A stretch of 43,949 nucleotides of DNA from Synergistes sp. (GTDB lineage Bacteria; Synergistota; Synergistia; Synergistales; Synergistaceae): assembly GCA_030531745.1 (NCBI GenBank), contig JAUNMU010000002.1:1-43949 (forward strand), given 5' to 3'. The notes below the pieces were generated by a model. That model was not told the origin of the DNA. It saw nothing but the letters and a program-made list of their open reading frames with translations, and did not search any database. The translations under genes were made by a program, and so were the position numbers. Positions 13,686-35,911 of this stretch are shown one piece after another (the first letter of the stretch is position 1; each line of letters starts with the position of its first letter).

Positions 13686-13714
13686 ATTATAAAGTCAAAA
13701 CACTAAGCTGTCAA
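13686..13714 (-). promoter_or_regulatory. Consensus sigma70 promoter for rplU-rpmA (TTGACA-N17-TATAAT)
   Basis: On the minus strand TTGACA lies at 13714-13709, a 17-nt spacer follows, and TATAAT lies at 13691-13686. It is about 70 nt upstream of rplU. Confidence 0.7.
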
Positions 13715-28591: not shown

Positions 28592-29297
28592 CCGCTACCT
28601 TGCAATGTGCGGCGCGGGCGCAAGACGAAAAGTTGAGGAATACATCTCGCAGGGTCGCGTAAAAATAAATAAAGAAACCGTAACAGAACCCGGCAGACAG
28701 GTATCCGCAAACGACCGCGTTGAATTTGACGGCAAAGTGATAAGCCCTGTCACGCAGAAATATCTGATATTTCATAAACCGACAGGCGTAATATCCGCTG
28801 TGGAAGACTCGCGGGAGCGCACCGTCATTGATATTCTTCCACCGTCAATGGACAAATACAGGCTTTTCCCCGTAGGACGCCTTGACCGCGACAGCGAGGG
28901 GCTGATAATCCTGACCAACGATGGGATATTCTCACAGGAACTTATCCATCCGCGAAACGGATTCACAAAAACTTATGAAGTGGAATTACGAAAACCGATG
29001 AATGAAGAGCGGCTTGCAAAATGGAGAAACGGAGTAGAAGCCGACGACCATTTTCTGCGCCCGCTGTCGGTGAGCAGAATAAACCGCGCACCATTCGGTC
29101 GCTGCTTTGAAGTTGTCCTCGGAGAAGGAATAAAACGCGAAATACGTGCAATGGCGCGTGCATTGGACAACGACGTCACAAAACTATTCCGCCGCAAAAT
29201 AGGCAAACTGACGCTCCAAAACCTGCCGCCGTGCGAATTTATAGAGACAACAAAAGAAGAACTGTGGGACTATATAAAAAACGGGAAAACGGTGTGA
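28566..29297 (+). CDS. rluB: Pseudouridine synthase, RsuA/RluB family (S4 domain + catalytic GRLD)
   Basis: S4 N-domain (RLNRYLAMCG...SRRKVEEYI) and catalytic motif VGRLDRDSEGLIILTNDG. Confidence 0.87.
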   Translation: MSEETIRLNRYLAMCGAGARRKVEEYISQGRVKINKETVTEPGRQVSANDRVEFDGKVISPVTQKYLIFHKPTGVISAVEDSRERTVIDILPPSMDKYRLFPVGRLDRDSEGLIILTNDGIFSQELIHPRNGFTKTYEVELRKPMNEERLAKWRNGVEADDHFLRPLSVSRINRAPFGRCFEVVLGEGIKREIRAMARALDNDVTKLFRRKIGKLTLQNLPPCEFIETTKEELWDYIKNGKTV

Positions 29298-29405
29298 TAT
29301 CCAAGGAAAACGTCAGATGATCTCACTTCTGCCGTCTACAATAAAGCCACGACAACATTATCATTTAACAAGAGTGCGTATATATAACCGATAGAAAAAT
29401 ACATT

Positions 29406-29448
29406 AAGGCTAAAATGCGATCGCATCGCATTTTAGCCTTAATTTTTT
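29406..29448 (+). terminator. Rho-independent terminator after rluB
   Basis: Perfect 16-bp stem AAGGCTAAAATGCGAT / ATCGCATTTTAGCCTT with a 3-nt loop, then AATTTTTT. Confidence 0.85.
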
Positions 29449-29504
29449 CCGTGAAATGTTGTAAAATATCCTTGCATATATAAAAATGAAAGGGTGCAAG
29501 AGAT

Positions 29505-30731
29505 ATGGGATACATAAAAAGAGATATAGAAACGGCAATGAGAGCTGCAATGGAAGACTACCCATGCATAATTGCAGCAGGGCCAAGGCAGGTCGGGAAG
29601 ACAACATTGTTGAAAAATATGTCGGAAGAGGGCAGAGATTATGTCACTCTTGACGATTTCGGTGACAGAGCGCTTGCAAAAAATGATCCGGCACTTTTCT
29701 TGTCGCTCCACAAACCGCCCGTCCTGATTGATGAAGTACAGTATGCACCTGAGTTGTTCCCATATATAAAAATTGCGGCAGACAACGGCGCACCGGCATC
29801 ATCCTTTTGGCTGACGGGGTCGCAGACTTTCTCTCTTATGTCATTGGCGCAGGAATCTTTGGCTGGGCGATGTGCTGTTTTTCGGATTCCATCGCTTTCA
29901 CAGCATGAAATATACGGTACCGGCGAAAATTCTCCGTTTACCCTATCACTTGATGCCCTTAATGAAAGACGATTCAGAGGAAATACCGCCTCTGTCTCGG
30001 AGATTTTTAGGCGTATTTGGCGCGGCTCAATGCCCGGACACATAAGCGGAAAATTCAAAGACCGCGATATATTTTATTCAAGCTACATTCAAACATATAT
30101 TGAGCGTGATGTCAGTGAAGCGGTTGATATTGCAAATAAATTTCAATTCACTGATTTTATTCGCGCTGCTGCCTGCCGCACATCTCAAATGCTGAATATA
30201 CACAGCATTGCCGCCGATGTCGGTATTTCCGATGATACGGCAAAACGCTGGCTGCATGTTTTGGAAAAATCAGGTGTAATATTTTACCTGCATCCGTATA
30301 GTGCCAATTTGTTGAAACGAACAGTAAAGACGCCGAAGATGTATTTCTTTGACACCGGACTTACTGCGTACCTGACAAAATATACCTCGCCGGAAATTTT
30401 GGAAGCAGGGGCAATAAACGGTGCATTGCTTGAAAATTATGTTGTTGCGGAACTTCGTAAAAGTTGGACAAATGCCGCAAAGGATTGCCCGATTTGGTAT
30501 TACAGGGACAAAAATTCCCGTGAGATTGATATTATAATGGAGTTTGACGGAGAACTTCACCCAATAGAGATAAAGAAAACAATAAATCCCGATGCGCGTT
30601 TGATACGCACATTTGAAATTTTAGACTCCTCTGTCTCCGTTCCACGCGGCACCGGAGCCGTACTCTGCATGCGTGAGAGCATCTCCGCGTTTGACGCGCA
30701 AAACTTCATTGTGCCTGTATGGATGATATGA
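29505..30731 (+). CDS. AAA+ ATPase, AAA_14 + DUF4143 type (orphan ATP-binding protein)
   Basis: Walker A GPRQVGKTT and Walker B LIDEVQ. The C-terminal region is typical of DUF4143 proteins (YFFDTGL..., REIDII). Confidence 0.75.
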   Translation: MGYIKRDIETAMRAAMEDYPCIIAAGPRQVGKTTLLKNMSEEGRDYVTLDDFGDRALAKNDPALFLSLHKPPVLIDEVQYAPELFPYIKIAADNGAPASSFWLTGSQTFSLMSLAQESLAGRCAVFRIPSLSQHEIYGTGENSPFTLSLDALNERRFRGNTASVSEIFRRIWRGSMPGHISGKFKDRDIFYSSYIQTYIERDVSEAVDIANKFQFTDFIRAAACRTSQMLNIHSIAADVGISDDTAKRWLHVLEKSGVIFYLHPYSANLLKRTVKTPKMYFFDTGLTAYLTKYTSPEILEAGAINGALLENYVVAELRKSWTNAAKDCPIWYYRDKNSREIDIIMEFDGELHPIEIKKTINPDARLIRTFEILDSSVSVPRGTGAVLCMRESISAFDAQNFIVPVWMI

Positions 30732-30903
30732 AATTGTGATTTATGATGAAATAATTTTGTGCATTGAAGATGTATTGACTGTAAAGGACCAGAAAAAAAC
30801 CGTGTGGCTGCGAAAGACAACAGAGAGAAAGAATTTGCGGCAACCGTAAAATCCCACTGCCGCCGTGCGCTGAAAGTATCAAAAATTCGGCGTGCGGTCG
30901 TTT

Positions 30904-31260
30904 TTATGCCATATTGACAGAGATCCCATCTTTCACCGCCGCTGAAATAAATGCCTGATCCTTAGCATAAGAAAATACCTTAAATTTAGCCTCCGGTGTC
31001 ATAGAAAGCATCATACTCACAGTCTCCGAAACCGTACTGTCGGAAATGCCTTTTACGGCAGTGCTTGAATTGTACTCAAATAAATCATTCGGCGAACAGT
31101 CAAGAAGATCAAAGAGTTTTACAACGATCGGCAGCGAAGGCTGGGCGCGTCCCTTTTCTATCGCAGAAATATAATTCGGTGACACAAAGAGCTTTTCCGC
31201 AAGTTCACTCTGCTTCATTCCCTTAAGCATCCTAAAATGTTTTATCCTGTCTCCAAGCAT
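30904..31260 (-). CDS. XRE-family helix-turn-helix transcriptional regulator
   Basis: HTH_3 signature (IKHFRMLKGMKQSELAEKLFVSPNYISAIEKGRAQPSL). ATG 31260 is preceded by GGGGG at 9 nt. The longer ORF adds only a hydrophobic leader. Confidence 0.8.
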   Translation of the reverse strand: MLGDRIKHFRMLKGMKQSELAEKLFVSPNYISAIEKGRAQPSLPIVVKLFDLLDCSPNDLFEYNSSTAVKGISDSTVSETVSMMLSMTPEAKFKVFSYAKDQAFISAAVKDGISVNMA

Positions 31261-31287
31261 TGATAATACCCCCATAACTGTGCTAAT

Positions 31288-31300
31288 GATAAATATTATC
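31288..31300. promoter_or_regulatory. Palindrome GATAA-ata-TTATC in the divergent XRE/cassette control region
   Basis: Perfect 5-bp arms with a 3-bp spacer, 28 nt upstream of the XRE start. Confidence 0.4.
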
Positions 31301-31327
31301 AATGCGACAAACAATTCACTGTTAGTG

Positions 31328-31355
31328 TTGACAAAAGCAATATAAGTATTATAAT
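31328..31355 (+). promoter_or_regulatory. Near-consensus sigma70 promoter for the five-gene cassette (TTGACA-N16-TATAAT)
   Basis: TTGACA at 31328-31333 and TATAAT at 31350-31355, 63 nt upstream of ATG 31419. Confidence 0.6.
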
Positions 31356-31418
31356 GACCATAGATGGCATTTATAGAATTAAAAATACAACTATAAATGT
31401 TACTTAGGAGGGAATGTT

Positions 31419-32198
31419 ATGAAAAGATTTTTAACACTGTTTGCATTGCTGTTTGTTGTGGGTTTGCCTTGTAATGCTTATGCGTATGTTAATTATGACC
31501 CTGATTTGAATCCTGTACTACATAATGCTTCGGACGAGGATTTACAGCCTTTGGTTGAGTATATTACAGGAAAATTGAGCAATTATATTGAAATAGATGA
31601 GAATTACAAAAGAGATCCATACAAACCTACGGCTTATGCTAATACAATAGCTTCCGAGATACGCAGTATGGGTGGAAACACTTTTGCGAATTTGGTGCGC
31701 GGCGGCGGAGTTGAGTACAGGGAAATTGTCTGTGATGTGGCAGACAAACTCAAAGTTAACTATAACAAAAATGCAAGTGTTGAAAGAATTGAAGGATATA
31801 TAATTCAAAAATTATTTGCCGATGTTTTGGAAAGTTTACCAAGCAAGGAAAGAGAACAGTTATTGAACGACATTGCCCCAGGTGTCCCACTTAAAAAGCA
31901 AGCCGCAGCTGCGGCGGCAATAGCGGCTTTTAATGCCGGAGGATTTGTTTCGTATAAGATAGCTCTGATAGTAGCTAACAGCGTTGCTAAAATAATCTTG
32001 GGACATGGTTTGTCCTTAGCTGCAAACGCGACGTTGACTCAAACATTGGGAATCTTGAGCGGTCCTGTAGGTTGGGCAGCCGTAGGAGCTTGGACACTAA
32101 TTAACGTGGCAGGTCCGAGTTATAAGGTGACAATACCATGCGTTGTACATATTGCTATGTTGCGACAGAAACAGAAATACGAGGATTATGCGGATTAG
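31419..32198 (+). CDS. YaaW/UPF0174-like protein carrying an N-terminal signal peptide
   Basis: From memory of E. coli YaaW: GGNTFANLVRGGGVEYREIVCDVADKLKV resembles GGDSIANKLRGHGKLYRAILLDVSKRLKL, and YKVTIPCVVHIAMLRQ resembles YRVTIPAVLQIACLRR. Signal peptide MKRFLTLFALLFVVGLPCNAYA. SD AGGAGG at 7 nt. Confidence 0.7.
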   Translation: MKRFLTLFALLFVVGLPCNAYAYVNYDPDLNPVLHNASDEDLQPLVEYITGKLSNYIEIDENYKRDPYKPTAYANTIASEIRSMGGNTFANLVRGGGVEYREIVCDVADKLKVNYNKNASVERIEGYIIQKLFADVLESLPSKEREQLLNDIAPGVPLKKQAAAAAAIAAFNAGGFVSYKIALIVANSVAKIILGHGLSLAANATLTQTLGILSGPVGWAAVGAWTLINVAGPSYKVTIPCVVHIAMLRQKQKYEDYAD

Positions 32199-32263
32199 CA
32201 TAGTTTTAGCGAATGAGTTTTGTGTATTTTGAAATATATATTTGAATGAACGGAGGAGTTGTT

Positions 32264-32491
32264 GTGTCTAAGAAGGAAGTAATTGAACCGATAGGAAGGA
32301 CTGAAGATGGTAAAATCTGCTGTCCGAAATGTGGTAGCACTAATTTGCAAGCCGTGTCAGATACGCATAGTAAAGGAATTAGTTTTTGGAAGGTGTGTCT
32401 GTGCGGATTGTTCGGTTTTTGTGGCGCTAATAAACCAGTTACGGAGCATTATTGGGTATGTTCTGATTGCGGATCTAAGTTCAAACAGTGA
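32264..32491 (+). CDS. Small zinc-ribbon membrane protein (CxxC - hydrophobic segment - CxxC; LITAF-like topology)
   Basis: CPKCGS ... ISFWKVCLCGLFGFCGA ... HYWVCSDCGS. GTG 32264 is preceded by GGAGGAG at 7 nt; the ATG at 32246 lacks an SD. Confidence 0.6.
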   Translation: MSKKEVIEPIGRTEDGKICCPKCGSTNLQAVSDTHSKGISFWKVCLCGLFGFCGANKPVTEHYWVCSDCGSKFKQ

Positions 32492-32880
32492 AAAATAAGG
32501 GAGTTGAAATTTGGATTAAGTTAATGGACATAAGTGCTAAATATTGGGGCTGTCATCAAATGCCACAACGCAGTTTTTTCTTGGGTGATTGGCAGTTCCC
32601 GATATGTGCACGTTGCACCGGGGTTTTGGTAGGTTATATAATGGCAATGTTTTGTCGTTCATTGTTGCGCCATCGTCTTAGTTTGAGCGACTATATGATG
32701 TTGATGTTGCCTATGGCTGTTGACGGAGGAATACAGTACATATCACGGTATGAATCAACTAATTTACGCAGATTTTTTACCGGTCTGCTTGCAGGGATAG
32801 GATTGATGTCCATAGTACTGAATTTAGTTGCTTGCATTTTATCTGCGCTACACAAATTGCTTGAGTTTGAACCGCTATAG
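32488..32880 (+). CDS. DUF2085 family membrane protein
   Basis: CHQMPQRSF...FPICARCTGVLVGY signature plus three further TM segments. Start is uncertain: GTG 32488 (overlaps the upstream stop) or ATG 32524. Confidence 0.7.
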   Translation: MKNKGVEIWIKLMDISAKYWGCHQMPQRSFFLGDWQFPICARCTGVLVGYIMAMFCRSLLRHRLSLSDYMMLMLPMAVDGGIQYISRYESTNLRRFFTGLLAGIGLMSIVLNLVACILSALHKLLEFEPL

Positions 32881-32900
32881 TTGGGGAAGGTGCGTTTTCT

Positions 32901-33266
32901 ATGATCATAAGCTTGTATGGGAAAAAACACGATTTAATCAAAGTTAAATATGGTTTTAGTTGGACTGTACTTTTCTTTGGTTTCTTTGCACCGTTTTTCA
33001 GGCGTGATATAAAATGGGGTGCGATAATGTTTGTAGCAACTATTGGAGTTATTTGGTTAACCGTGGAACTACATCTACCTGTTGACATGCAGCCTTTTTG
33101 CCTTTATATTGCGCAGATACTATTTTCTTTTATATATAATAATATTTATATTAAAGAGTTGTTGGCAAAAGGATATATGCCATACGATAATGTATCAAGA
33201 ACAATACTTATTGAGAATGGTTATCTTACGGATGACTTTGACTTTGGTAAAAAGGAAGAAGTTTAG
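32901..33266 (+). CDS. DUF2628-like small membrane protein
   Basis: GFSWTVLFFGFFAPFFRRDIKWG motif resembles DUF2628. Two TM helices. SD GGGGAAGGTG. Confidence 0.5.
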   Translation: MIISLYGKKHDLIKVKYGFSWTVLFFGFFAPFFRRDIKWGAIMFVATIGVIWLTVELHLPVDMQPFCLYIAQILFSFIYNNIYIKELLAKGYMPYDNVSRTILIENGYLTDDFDFGKKEEV

Positions 33267-33278
33267 AGGTCTTACGGC

Positions 33279-33728
33279 ATGAAGAAAGTTATTATGTTCT
33301 TAGTCACTGTTTGTATTTTTGTATCTTCGGGTGAATGTTTTGCCGAAAACTGGAAGTATGCGGTAACATCTATGGGCGGAGATAAATACTATGTTGATAT
33401 GGACAGTGTTTATGAGCAGAAACTACCGTTTGGCGCAAGTGACATTTTCTTTTACGTTAAAATCACTTATGGTAGTGACGGCAAAAGAAAAATGTCTAAA
33501 AAATACGGAGAGCCGATCGCTTGTGCGATAGAAAGATGGGCTGTTTCTTTTAGAGAGTATTTTGTGACAATAGTGAGTTATAAAATATATAACACAAGCG
33601 GTAAGGTGGTATCTAAATCAAGCAGAGAGTTAGATTACAATAACTATGAGGAGATAAAAGAAAATACAATCGCTGATAAAGTGGCTGACTTGGTTTGGAA
33701 AACAAAATTTCTACCAAGACTTCAGTAA
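33279..33728 (+). CDS. Secreted hypothetical protein
   Basis: Signal peptide MKKVIMFLVTVCIFVSSGECFA, then a beta-rich region of about 125 aa (KYYVDMDSV...). No family recognised. Confidence 0.6.
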   Translation: MKKVIMFLVTVCIFVSSGECFAENWKYAVTSMGGDKYYVDMDSVYEQKLPFGASDIFFYVKITYGSDGKRKMSKKYGEPIACAIERWAVSFREYFVTIVSYKIYNTSGKVVSKSSRELDYNNYEEIKENTIADKVADLVWKTKFLPRLQ

Positions 33729-33756
33729 TCTCAATGATTATTGCTCCCTTAATAAA

Positions 33757-33812
33757 ACCGCCGTCTTCCTGCGAGCGGCGTAATCGCCGCACAGGAAGAC
33801 GGCGGTTTTTTT
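33757..33812 (+). terminator. Rho-independent terminator of the five-gene cassette
   Basis: 15-bp stem ACCGCCGTCTTCCTG / CAGGAAGACGGCGGT followed by TTTTTTT. Confidence 0.85.
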
Positions 33813-33858
33813 CGGCTTTCGCGCATCGGAATAGATTTTAGTACGATAATTTACGAAA

Positions 33859-33955
33859 GATTTTAGCTTCTTGCCTATAATCAGCGCAAAACAGCTATAG
33901 TGTTTATCTGCCAAAAACGAATTAATCAGCGTGTCCTTATCTATGCCGTATCAAT
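33859..33955 (+). repeat. Composite intergenic repeat, copy R3 (degenerate end of B plus D module 33879-33936 plus a partial extra D tail)
   Basis: TAATCAGCGCAAAACAGCTATAGTGTTTATCTGCCAAAAACGAATTAATCAGCGTGTCC aligns with the D modules of R1, R2 and R5. Confidence 0.75.
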
Positions 33956-34036: not shown

Positions 34037-35620
34037 GTGGGGAAATATTTTAATCCGAGTAATCAGAGCTTTACAGATGATTCTACAGCTCCGATATACG
34101 TTGATAAAACGGGGCTGCTTGAACATCTGAATAGATGCATACGCACACCGAACAGGTGCGTAGCCGTCAGCCACGCAAGACGCTTCGGCAAATCGCAGGC
34201 CGCGGGAATGTTAGACGCATATTACAGCAAAGGCTGTAATTCGCACGAACTCTTTTCAAGGTTTGAGATCGCAAAAACGGCGGATTTTGAAAAATACCTG
34301 AATAAATATAATGTCATACACATTGATATGGCGCAAATGTGCGATAACTGCAACGGAGATTTCATGGAAAAACTCTTCAAAACACTTACCGCTGAATTTG
34401 CCGCATCGGAACTCGGTGACAAACTTGACTGTTCCAAACCTGTTGAACTTGTGATAAGTGACATATACACGCTGACCGATTTACCCTTTGTCATAATCAT
34501 AGATGAATGGGACTGCGTAGTGCGTAATTACGCAAGTGATCAAAGACTTGTACATGAGTATATGCAGTTTCTGCACGCTCTCTTCAAAAGTGAATTGGCA
34601 AAACAGTTTCTTGCCCTCGGCTATATAACAGGCATACTCCCGATAAAGAAATTTGATGACGAATCAACACTGAATAATTTCAGAGAATATACGATGATAA
34701 ATTCAAGAGGGCTGACAAAGTACTTCGGTTTCACCGAAAACGAAGTGGAAGAACTGTGCATAAAATATAACGCGGATATTGTAGGTGTGAAAGAATGGTA
34801 CGATGGCTATGACATAAATGGCATATCAATGTATAATCCGAACTCGGTTTGTCAGGCTATGGAGTTTCATGAACTCACATCTTATTGGACGAATACTTCC
34901 TCTTTCAGCACCATAAACAGATTTGTTACGCTGAACTTTGAAGGGCTGAAAGATGACGTTATAAATATGCTCAAGGGTGAGAGAGTTGCTGTAAATGTCC
35001 GCACGTTTAGGAACGATTTGTCCGAGATAAACTCAAAGGACGATGCTTTGACTGCACTCATACATTTGGGTTATCTTGCATACGATACTGAGATGGAAGA
35101 GGCATACATACCGAACTTTGAAGTTGCCCTTGCATATCATTCCGCACTGCCGTCAAGCGGCTGGAAGGACGTTGCCGACTCAATATCGCGTTGTACCGAT
35201 CTGTTGAATGCAACGATAAGAAAAGACGAAGAAAAAGTTGCGGAGCTGATAGATAAGGCTCACACTGCGTACACTTCGCATATCAAATACAATGATGAAA
35301 ATTCTCTGTCATGTGTTGTGTCAATGGCGTACTTCACAGCTCCCGCGTATTATACGATAGTCCGTGAATTTGCATCCGGCAGAGGCTTTGCGGATCTTGC
35401 TTTCATACCGAAGAAAATGTCATCAAACAGACCGCCTATGATAATAGAACTTAAATGGAACAAGTCTGCCGACAGCGCGATAAAACAAGTTAAAGAAAAA
35501 AGGTATCACGGAGCACTCTCCGGATTTTGTAATGAAATTCTCCTTGTAGGTATAAACTACGACAAAGACGACAAGGATAAAAAACATACGTGCAAAATAG
35601 AAAGAGTGAGGAACGTGTAA
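34037..35620 (+). CDS. AAA-ATPase-like (PF09820-type) protein with C-terminal PD-(D/E)XK nuclease-like domain
   Basis: N-terminus FTDDSTAPIYVDKTGLLEHL...RFGKSQAAGMLDAYY and IIDEWD are typical of the predicted AAA-ATPase family. C-terminal GRGFADLAFIP...IIELKWN is a PD-(D/E)XK-like motif. GTG start with AGAGGGAGG SD. Confidence 0.75.
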   Translation: MGKYFNPSNQSFTDDSTAPIYVDKTGLLEHLNRCIRTPNRCVAVSHARRFGKSQAAGMLDAYYSKGCNSHELFSRFEIAKTADFEKYLNKYNVIHIDMAQMCDNCNGDFMEKLFKTLTAEFAASELGDKLDCSKPVELVISDIYTLTDLPFVIIIDEWDCVVRNYASDQRLVHEYMQFLHALFKSELAKQFLALGYITGILPIKKFDDESTLNNFREYTMINSRGLTKYFGFTENEVEELCIKYNADIVGVKEWYDGYDINGISMYNPNSVCQAMEFHELTSYWTNTSSFSTINRFVTLNFEGLKDDVINMLKGERVAVNVRTFRNDLSEINSKDDALTALIHLGYLAYDTEMEEAYIPNFEVALAYHSALPSSGWKDVADSISRCTDLLNATIRKDEEKVAELIDKAHTAYTSHIKYNDENSLSCVVSMAYFTAPAYYTIVREFASGRGFADLAFIPKKMSSNRPPMIIELKWNKSADSAIKQVKEKRYHGALSGFCNEILLVGINYDKDDKDKKHTCKIERVRNV

Positions 35621-35671: not shown

Positions 35672-35911
35672 TCAATATTTCATTTTTGTCAGCAGAGGTG
35701 CGAACAATGTGTCGTTGGTGCGGCTGAGTTTCAATCCGCGTACGATGTCGCGCAGGTCTCCCCGTCTGATGTTCTTTGATATTTTCATCGTGATAAGCTG
35801 GCCTGTGCCGCACTTGCCGCAGGTCCAGACAAAGTTTTCAATCATTCCTGAGCTTGGTGTGCCCGCAAGGACTTTCAACTCTCCGCATTTTTGGCATGCA
35901 ACTACATACAT
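35672..35911 (-). CDS. Small zinc-ribbon protein (two CxxC knuckles), hypothetical
   Basis: CQKCG ... CGKCG. SD AAGGAAG lies 7 nt upstream. Starts 12 nt after the DUF3084 gene stop. Confidence 0.6.
   Translation of the reverse strand: MYVVACQKCGELKVLAGTPSSGMIENFVWTCGKCGTGQLITMKISKNIRRGDLRDIVRGLKLSRTNDTLFAPLLTKMKY

Follow-up and report, generated by a model that had tools for sequence, protein, structure and literature searches.

A 43,949-nucleotide stretch of a Synergistes sp. assembly (GCA_030531745.1, contig JAUNMU010000002.1, positions 1 to 43,949 of the forward strand; hereafter the window) carries at 31419-33728 five tightly packed plus-strand genes, here called G1 to G5, which diverge from a minus-strand gene for an XRE-family helix-turn-helix (HTH) regulator, as seen in both the open reading frame (ORF) list and the raw sequence. 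G1 encodes a homologue of the anti-phage sensor JukA that bears a predicted secretion signal. Its gene (31419-32198, 259 residues) begins with an ATG preceded at 7 nt by AGGAGG. G2 (32264-32491) has its likelier start at GTG 32264, which follows a GGAGG and gives 75 residues; a start at ATG 32246 would give 81. The start of G3 (32488-32880) overlaps the G2 stop by 4 nt (GTGA), and G4 (32901-33266) and G5 (33279-33728) follow after gaps of 20 and 12 nt. With the GTG start of G2 the gap behind G1 is 65 nt, and a first-pass annotation of this DNA had correctly described five co-directional genes with gaps of at most 65 nt and one overlap (65, -4, 20 and 12 nt as measured). The locus is sampled in one assembly and in an identical Logan contig (L087, corresponding to window positions 29217-33929).

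By sequence comparison, G1 is a full-length JukA/YaaW (UPF0174) homologue. It matched the PADLOC JukA profile PDLC04111 with an E value of 1.1e-66, residues 27-256 aligning to profile positions 9-242 of 250, and the related searches gave 2.7e-61 for PADLOC PDLC04113, 2.5e-50 for phrog_13238 and 3.6e-8, above the cut-off, for the Cbp3-like chaperone domain (PF03981). The match to DUF3944 (PF13099) was weak (E = 0.022, 15.1 bits versus a cut-off of 24), and the YDxDLNPVL motif of G1 aligns with its homologues. G1 is not an equivalog of PRK10236, which NCBI names “acidic protein MsyB” in NCBIfam (66.6 bits against a 395-bit cut-off). In an alignment of 49 sequences it keeps the consensus residue at all of the 17 invariant columns (17/17); 26 further columns are nearly invariant. 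At E <= 1e-5 we found 233 homologues, which carry the name YaaW or DUF3944 in their sources, and the closest, at 61% identity, come from Treponema/Spirochaetia of the pig gut. The AlphaFold2 model of G1 is all-alpha with a mean predicted local distance difference test score (pLDDT) of 80 and an N-terminal stretch of 21 low-confidence residues. A Foldseek comparison of this model with the PDB gave no match (best E = 0.58), so the JukA/Cbp3-like fold appears to be unrepresented among solved structures and the model tells nothing further about function; PDB sequence searches with G1, G3 and G5 likewise returned no meaningful matches.

JukA, formerly YaaW, serves as the sensor in the Juk system against jumbo phages (bioRxiv 10.1101/2022.09.17.508391; PMC13282480; PMC13434031). 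The JukA of Pseudomonas aeruginosa is diffuse in the cytoplasm and relocates to the infection site (bioRxiv 10.1101/2022.09.17.508391), where it attaches to gp241, an early phage protein located on the early-infection vesicle, and brings in JukB, which forms pores (bioRxiv 10.1101/2022.09.17.508391; PMC13282480; PMC13434031). JukA also combines with other putative effectors, the list including a patatin phospholipase and RfaL besides the JukB pore (bioRxiv 10.1101/2022.09.17.508391; PMC13282480; PMC13434031), and the XRE-paired JukAs of Escherichia and Janthinobacterium are protective alone (bioRxiv 10.1101/2022.09.17.508391). All experimentally studied bacterial JukAs are anti-phage, and defence genes are overrepresented at JukA loci (bioRxiv 10.1101/2022.09.17.508391). 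The family is reported to be among the most widespread of bacterial immune proteins, although the way in which its JukB-less versions protect is unclear (PMC13282480). The first-pass annotation had held that none of the five products has an assigned function, that no described system with this combination was known and that PADLOC would return nothing; the assignment of G1 to a published anti-phage sensor, the published XRE-paired JukAs and the PADLOC matches of both G1 and the upstream ATPase (candidate PDC-S01, 6.8e-104) run counter to these statements. Its guess at phage exclusion was reasonable, in that the G1 family has a demonstrated anti-phage function.

Compared with JukAB of P. aeruginosa PA14, G1 is a full-length JukA homologue with a possible DUF3944-like N-terminal motif and the Cbp3-like domain, and a candidate defence gene adjoins the locus, as it does at many JukA loci. 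Unlike PA14, the Synergistaceae locus has no JukB: neither G2 to G5 nor the two flanking genes matched the PADLOC JukB profile at E <= 1. The hosts also differ (Pseudomonas versus Synergistaceae), and PA14 JukA is diffuse in the cytoplasm whereas G1 has a predicted Sec signal peptide. A nearer likeness is found in the XRE-paired operons without JukB, which likewise have a JukA gene beside an XRE gene and no recognizable effector domain in JukA. The same divergent XRE-JukA layout accompanies the Treponema homologues of G1 (58 to 61% identity). What sets the present locus apart from such operons is the predicted signal peptide and four extra small envelope genes co-oriented behind JukA on what is predicted to be a single transcript.

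Residues 1-22 of G1 form a predicted Sec-type signal peptide (MKR-FLTLFALLFVVGL-PCNAYA, with Y as the first residue after the predicted cleavage site), which comprises two positive charges, 13 hydrophobic residues, a proline and then A-Y-A. We scored signal peptides by the presence of a positive N terminus, 13 to 15 hydrophobic residues and small residues at -3 and -1; G1 and G5 are among the 6 of the 47 window genes that pass. A comparable N-terminal extension was present in none of about 270 JukA relatives inspected, namely, the 119 closest homologues, stop-to-stop frames in selected genome loci and the JukA ORFs of 80 metagenomic loci. The secretion signal, predicted from sequence, is thus the one unusual feature of this JukA locus, and it would place G1 at the envelope and not in the cytoplasm. 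The studied JukAs are typically soluble and cytoplasmic before infection, and G1 departs from this by virtue of its predicted Sec signal. The signal peptide that had been proposed for the YaaW-like product is therefore borne out.

The divergent regulator gene (30904-31260, minus strand) encodes 118 residues from its likely start at ATG 31260. A maximal ORF of 136 residues runs from TTG 31314 (30904-31314, minus strand); since a GGGGG run resembling a Shine-Dalgarno sequence lies 7 nt before ATG 31260, we take that ATG as the likely start, and the gene is also called as 118 residues on the identical Logan contig. The protein matched Pfam HTH_3 (2.4e-14, 53.5 bits versus a cut-off of 23), and so has an HTH of the Cro/C1 type, and PADLOC HTH_VI (8.5e-14). 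A sigma-70-type promoter for the operon, TTGACA-16-TATAAT, lies at 31328-31355 on the plus strand and agrees with the consensus at 12/12 positions. Perfect TTGACA-N16-18-TATAAT sequences occur twice in the window against 0.04 expected. The sole other one, TTGACA-N17-TATAAT, is found at 13686-13714 on the minus strand.

Between the two genes, the palindrome GATAA-N3-TTATC extends to TGATAAATATTATCA (31287-31301) and is unique in the window. At least one match to such a palindrome arises by chance in 15 of 100 shuffles, and on its own it is weak evidence of an operator. Stronger evidence comes from a perfect 12-nt inverted repeat, GCATTGATAATA (31257-31268) and TATTATCAATGC (31294-31305), the left arm of which covers the XRE start codon while the right arm lies 22 bp upstream of the operon -35. 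The repeat and the palindrome together make up a putative operator set at 31257-31305, to which the XRE protein is predicted to bind. All that had first been reported of this region, that is, the adjoining divergent XRE-family regulator, the near-consensus promoter and the palindrome, withstood re-examination. A promoter-like site on the minus strand at 31292-31263 was considered as the XRE promoter and rejected, as its -10 element would sit a few bases from the start codon. A perfect 9-bp inverted repeat (31368-31376 and 31391-31399) is located in the predicted 5' untranslated region of the operon, and at 32229-32246, between G1 and G2, there is a palindrome of A and T only, TTGAAATATATATTTGAA; both could be RNA hairpins or additional operators.

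The operon is closed by an intrinsic terminator at 33754-33815 (plus strand), in which a hairpin at about 33754-33809, made of an 18-bp outer stem and an inner 6-bp stem, is followed by a run of seven U residues. The structure has a minimum free energy of -48.2 kcal/mol (z = -5.75; centroid, -45.8), and none of 200 shuffled sequences was as stable, in support of the terminator that had been proposed. A simple scan that suggested no terminator here was discounted: it permits loops of only 3 to 8 nt and missed the structure because the real loop is longer than 8 nt. At a G+C content of 0.383, the cassette is the most AT-rich 2.3 kb of the window (mean G+C 0.452, standard deviation 0.024), so the foreign composition first noted from hand counts, which proved exact (0.325 versus 0.475), is confirmed. 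By gene, the value is 0.32 for G4, 0.35 for G5 and about 0.41 for G1 to G3. Scans of 29.0-36.5 kb for Rfam families and tandem repeats were negative. Within G4, a promoter-like TTGACA-17-TATATT sequence (33082-33110, plus strand; 11/12 positions) lies 170 nt upstream of G5, a gene that may have a promoter to itself and an origin different from that of the others. An 88-residue antisense ORF inside G1 (31542-31808, minus strand) shows no sign of being a real gene; an overprinted antisense gene is known for yaaW of Escherichia coli (PMC2268670).

G2 has a CPKC at residue 26 and a CSDC at residue 72 with a hydrophobic segment between them, a layout like that of LITAF, and its Pfam matches to zinc ribbons are weak overall; that to LITAF-like PF10601 has an E value of 0.076 (13.6 bits versus a cut-off of 23.8, covering 22-78). 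It also matches the C-terminal parts of phrog_3845 and phrog_2546. G3 is a polytopic membrane protein with an N-terminal Cys cluster and is matched by DUF2085 (PF09858) at 6e-31 (107.1 bits versus a cut-off of 25) over profile positions 1-89 of 90. Of the CxxC-transmembrane-CxxC zinc ribbon and the DUF2085 protein of the first-pass annotation, the layout of two CxxC pairs around a hydrophobic segment and the DUF2085 assignment are confirmed. For G3, a viral-contig scan and a tblastn search of phage genomes revealed nothing, and the literature passages seen that mention DUF2085 report no function for it.

In 7 of 9 plasmid-borne DUF2085 loci (L092, L093, L095 and L097-L100), a gene for a small Cys-rich membrane protein abuts or overlaps the DUF2085 gene on its upstream side, in the same order as G2 and G3. 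Such pairs occur without JukA in replicons of Bacillus, Paenibacillus, Brevibacillus, Jeotgalibacillus and Monoglobus, and the Monoglobus gene upstream of DUF2085 is homologous to G2 (BLASTP, 5e-8). All nine loci lack JukA, G4 and G5, so the pairs elsewhere are unlinked to these genes. The partners are heterogeneous, with either an N-terminal zinc ribbon and two transmembrane segments or two transmembrane segments and a Cys/Asp-rich tail; three different architectures were seen in all. At three of the nine loci, stress genes of the TerD or TelA type are found no more than about 2.5 kb away. The small Cys-rich membrane protein and its DUF2085 partner thereby stand out as a recurrent, uncharacterized gene pair.

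G4 is a small membrane protein with two or three transmembrane segments that matches phrog_4915 (8.7e-21) and no Pfam family at E <= 5. A search of 5.8 billion proteins returned only three homologues, of which the best (47% identity) is from Lederbergia lenta, a relative of Bacillus, where it is a lone gene between those of a PRD regulator and a sugar-binding protein. DUF2628 (PF10947), with which G4 had been compared, does not match it, and only one G4 relative reaches as much as E = 3.3; the label rests on the UniRef name of the closest homologue (P0123). A viral-contig scan with G4 was negative, and tblastn against phage genomes yielded a single match, unannotated, in a wine phage.

G5 is predicted to be exported by the signal peptide MKKVIMFLVTVCIFVSSGECFA, with E as the first residue after the cleavage site, in line with the secreted protein first proposed, since the peptide passes the Sec rules. 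It is nearly an orphan. A word-index homology search returned only G5 itself, and an exhaustive HMMER search of 1.84 billion representatives found five distant relatives. From this small alignment an AlphaFold2 model was obtained with a pLDDT of 80.3 and a predicted template modeling score of 0.72. The top nine PDB matches of the model are all Haemophilus influenzae Protein E (entries 3zh5, 3zh7 and 6gus; probability 0.96 to 1.0, template modeling score 0.35 to 0.60), and among BFVD models phage proteins named “Surface-adhesin protein E” match with E values down to 7e-7. Pfam Adhesin_E (PF16747) matched G5 below its cut-off (E = 0.027, 15.2 bits versus 23.7), and of the six G5-family members scanned only G5 itself matched; the sub-threshold match agrees with the Protein E-like fold. 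We consequently regard G5 as a near-orphan with a predicted fold like that of Haemophilus Protein E, and the near-orphan has in this way gained a fold assignment. Both G5 and Protein E or its phage counterparts are exported proteins. Protein E is a lipoprotein, whereas the site in G5 is of the signal-peptidase-I type and lacks a lipobox.

The relatives of G5 include four paralogues in tandem, placed immediately behind a cI-like repressor within a prophage-like region. These (locus L090, 3641-6152, GCA_045642025.1) are 173 to 184 residues long, each with a signal peptide; the repressor combines HTH_3 with Peptidase_S24, and a SLFN-type helicase follows them. One further relative lies beside Sel1/LprI and Fic genes.

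To what extent the five genes occur together elsewhere was assessed at fetched JukA loci, comprising 70 from genomes (one per GTDB species), 6 viral contigs, 8 look-ups of close homologues and 80 metagenomic loci. With phmmer --max, no relative of G2 to G5 was detected in 76 JukA-bearing genome, viral or look-up loci or in the 80 metagenomic loci, and conversely JukA was absent near the relatives of G3, G4 and G5 in the loci inspected. Two units do recur, namely, an XRE or other HTH gene divergent from JukA and a Cys-rich membrane gene followed by DUF2085. A small divergent HTH gene lies directly upstream of JukA in Treponema, Aggregatibacter, Haemophilus and Campylobacter concisus. On this sampling the five genes are not a conserved system but a single-instance mosaic of unrelated modules, at least four in number and independently distributed, and the differing G+C contents of G4 and G5 fit such an origin. 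The earlier proposal of one five-gene system is not upheld by about 160 JukA loci. It had been put forward on the understanding that it would fail if the genes did not co-occur in other genomes, and only G2 and G3 recur together.

The genes that follow JukA are varied. One of 10 downstream neighbors tested is JukB; as a positive control, the gene after Pseudomonas ceruminis JukA matched JukB at 2.6e-8. The downstream partner is a zinc-ribbon and Sel1-repeat protein in Treponema and a 62-residue acidic protein in a Synergistaceae metagenome-assembled genome. Directly downstream of JukA in a Megasphaera locus (L034, 7754-8587), a gene matches the PADLOC candidate PDC-M72B at 3.3e-6, and in a related viral contig (L081) the downstream gene is of similar size (274 residues), which hints that some JukA pairings are already on record as candidate systems with a different name. 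Of 119 close JukA homologues, 43 have a CxxC...CxxC zinc ribbon fused at the C terminus; a terminal one is likewise found in 26 of the 68 JukA genes of the fetched loci, and for three more the adjacent gene encodes one. Seven loci yielded two or more JukA-family gene calls, as full-length pairs (L010, L026, L028 and L059) or split fragments (L058, L071 and L072).

We consider it somewhat more probable than otherwise that the locus is a Juk-type defence unit without JukB, made up of JukA and the divergent XRE gene, which has been joined in one operon with the unrelated envelope modules G2+G3, G4 and G5 in a low-G+C accessory stretch beside a candidate defence ATPase. The XRE protein would bind the 12-nt inverted repeat and the TGATAA-N3-TTATCA operator in the 158-bp control region, thereby regulating its own gene and possibly tuning the operon. 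The consensus sigma-70 promoter is predicted to give a single mRNA of about 2.4 kb that ends at the strong terminator. By analogy with its published relatives, the JukA domain of G1 may be the phage-sensing or phage-blocking component, acting at or beyond the inner membrane by means of the Sec signal peptide. G2 to G5 are most likely independent, co-expressed cargo of the envelope, similar to prophage morons, since they do not co-occur with JukA elsewhere; they may serve in membrane exclusion or surface modification and are probably not dedicated JukA effectors. The cassette does resemble prophage moron or superinfection-exclusion cassettes in having a repressor-type HTH gene, a strong promoter and terminator, and small membrane or secreted ORFs rich in A+T. 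Relatives of G5 follow a cI-like repressor, and G2 and G4 match PHROG families. Unlike in moron cassettes, phage structural, integration and replication genes, att repeats and a tRNA gene are missing nearby, and the lead gene belongs to a cellular defence family.

Several points weigh against a JukB-less defence unit with unrelated cargo. Co-transcription, binding by XRE, export of G1 and anti-phage activity are all predictions here. No phiKZ-like phages of Synergistaceae are known. If G1 is exported, it would be kept apart from any infection vesicle in the cytoplasm, and the mechanism of the family may not transfer to it. An internal start at GTG 31458 or TTG 31464, though neither has a ribosome-binding site, would delete the signal peptide. 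The tight spacing, single promoter and terminator and all-envelope content argue for some integration of G2 to G5 with G1. The locus is also known from one assembly (and the identical Logan contig), so the missing co-occurrence partly reflects sparse sampling of this lineage. Finally, Juk activity has been shown so far only against phiKZ-like jumbo phages of Pseudomonas (bioRxiv 10.1101/2022.09.17.508391; PMC13282480; PMC13434031).

The alternatives differ mainly in how they take the signal peptide and the four genes behind G1. If the operon were an integrated, envelope-acting variant of Juk, an exported JukA would sense the ejection proteins of phages, either in the periplasm or on the outer side of the inner membrane, and G2/G3, G4 and periplasmic G5 would be the effectors that block genome entry. 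Such a variant would account for five products that are all predicted to be exported or membrane-bound and for a very compact operon with one promoter and one terminator. It would also suit a family whose effectors are varied and often membrane-acting (the JukB pore, patatin phospholipase and RfaL), which has membrane-protein genes directly downstream at several loci and in which about 40% of relatives have a zinc ribbon fused or in the next gene, G2 being a zinc-ribbon protein. We nonetheless hold it to be unlikely: relatives of G2 to G5 appear in 0 of about 160 JukA loci, every module is found elsewhere without JukA, the zinc knuckles of G2, which lacks a signal peptide, would be cytoplasmic and so opposite to exported G1, the G+C contents of G4 and G5 are unlike those of G1 to G3, and there is one instance of the locus. 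A housekeeping protein of the window clusters with Cloacibacillus and Synergistes, which places the organism in Synergistaceae, a diderm group. The most specific form of the integrated variant seems to us more doubtful still: a topologically inverted Juk of a diderm cell, in which the Sec-exported JukA recognizes ejected or early phage proteins, in the periplasm or on the outer side of the inner membrane, and works with G2/G3, G4 and the periplasmic Protein E-like G5 to stop genome entry. A different explanation dispenses with export altogether. The G1 signal peptide may be an artefact of annotation or else a recent 5' extension, without function, of an ordinary cytoplasmic, XRE-paired single-gene JukA, as starts at GTG 31458 or TTG 31464, both in frame, would remove it and leave 244 to 246 residues, the usual family length, and as none of the roughly 270 relatives has such an extension. 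This we find improbable given the strong AGGAGG 7 nt before ATG 31419, the want of a purine-rich ribosome-binding site at either internal candidate, the full set of Sec-signal features at the N terminus and a consensus-promoter transcript that would include ATG 31419.

It is also conceivable, to about the same low degree, that the genes have no part in defence and are an envelope or surface cluster for adhesion or remodeling, or the remnant of a prophage lysogenic-conversion region, with the JukA-family domain re-used as an exported chaperone-like or membrane-binding protein. The predicted fold of G5 matches that of the surface adhesin Protein E and G5 relatives sit in prophage moron positions; the matches of G2 and G4 are to families of phage proteins that have no known function; Cbp3, to which the JukA family is related, is a chaperone that serves a hydrophobic membrane protein; a signal peptide cannot be reconciled with the cytoplasmic mechanism published for JukA; and the Monoglobus pair of the G2+G3 type lies among housekeeping genes. 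Against these stand the anti-phage activity of every bacterial JukA studied by experiment and the enrichment of JukA loci in defence genes, as well as an immediate neighbor that is itself a candidate defence gene (PDC-S01) and surroundings free of phage structural, integrase and replication genes, tRNA genes and flanking repeats. The degrees of confidence expressed for the favored defence unit, the integrated variant, the non-defence cluster and the artefact were assigned separately and need not add up to certainty, the artefact overlapping with the others.

The JukA family, its anti-phage role and its pairing with XRE genes were already known; what is new is a JukA with a predicted secretion signal. 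If G1 is truly exported and active, the JukA family would be able to act outside the cytoplasm, and the steps of infection that it can sense would be widened. Otherwise the locus is an ordinary defence gene with acquired neighboring cargo in an accessory island, and the main practical value of the analysis lies in a corrected annotation and not in a new five-gene system.

The accessory-island setting described at first holds in that ATPase genes flank the cassette. Upstream lies the DUF4143/AAA_14 ATPase (Pfam; 29505-30731, plus strand) that matches the PADLOC candidate single-gene defence family PDC-S01, and downstream a protein of 34037-35620 (plus strand) with AAA-ATPase_like (PF09820, 8.8e-23) and PD-(D/E)XK_9 (PF08011, 4e-8) domains and no PADLOC match. 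Housekeeping genes are found further upstream (NIF3, a class I aminoacyl-tRNA synthetase of the W/Y type [PF00579], ScpA, ScpB and a pseudouridine synthase), and a DUF3084 gene and a MacB-type ABC system lie downstream. No tRNA gene, integrase or flanking direct repeat was found near the cassette, nor were phage structural or replication genes nearby. When the region was compared with Cloacibacillus and Synergistes by way of the conserved glutamate synthase gene, the downstream gene order was not kept, which leaves the boundaries of the island undefined. A 79-residue minus-strand ORF (35672-35911) with CQKCG...CGKCG and no Pfam match lies at the right edge of the low-G+C stretch, and weak relatives of the 34037-35620 protein lie near two other JukA loci (L056 and L011).

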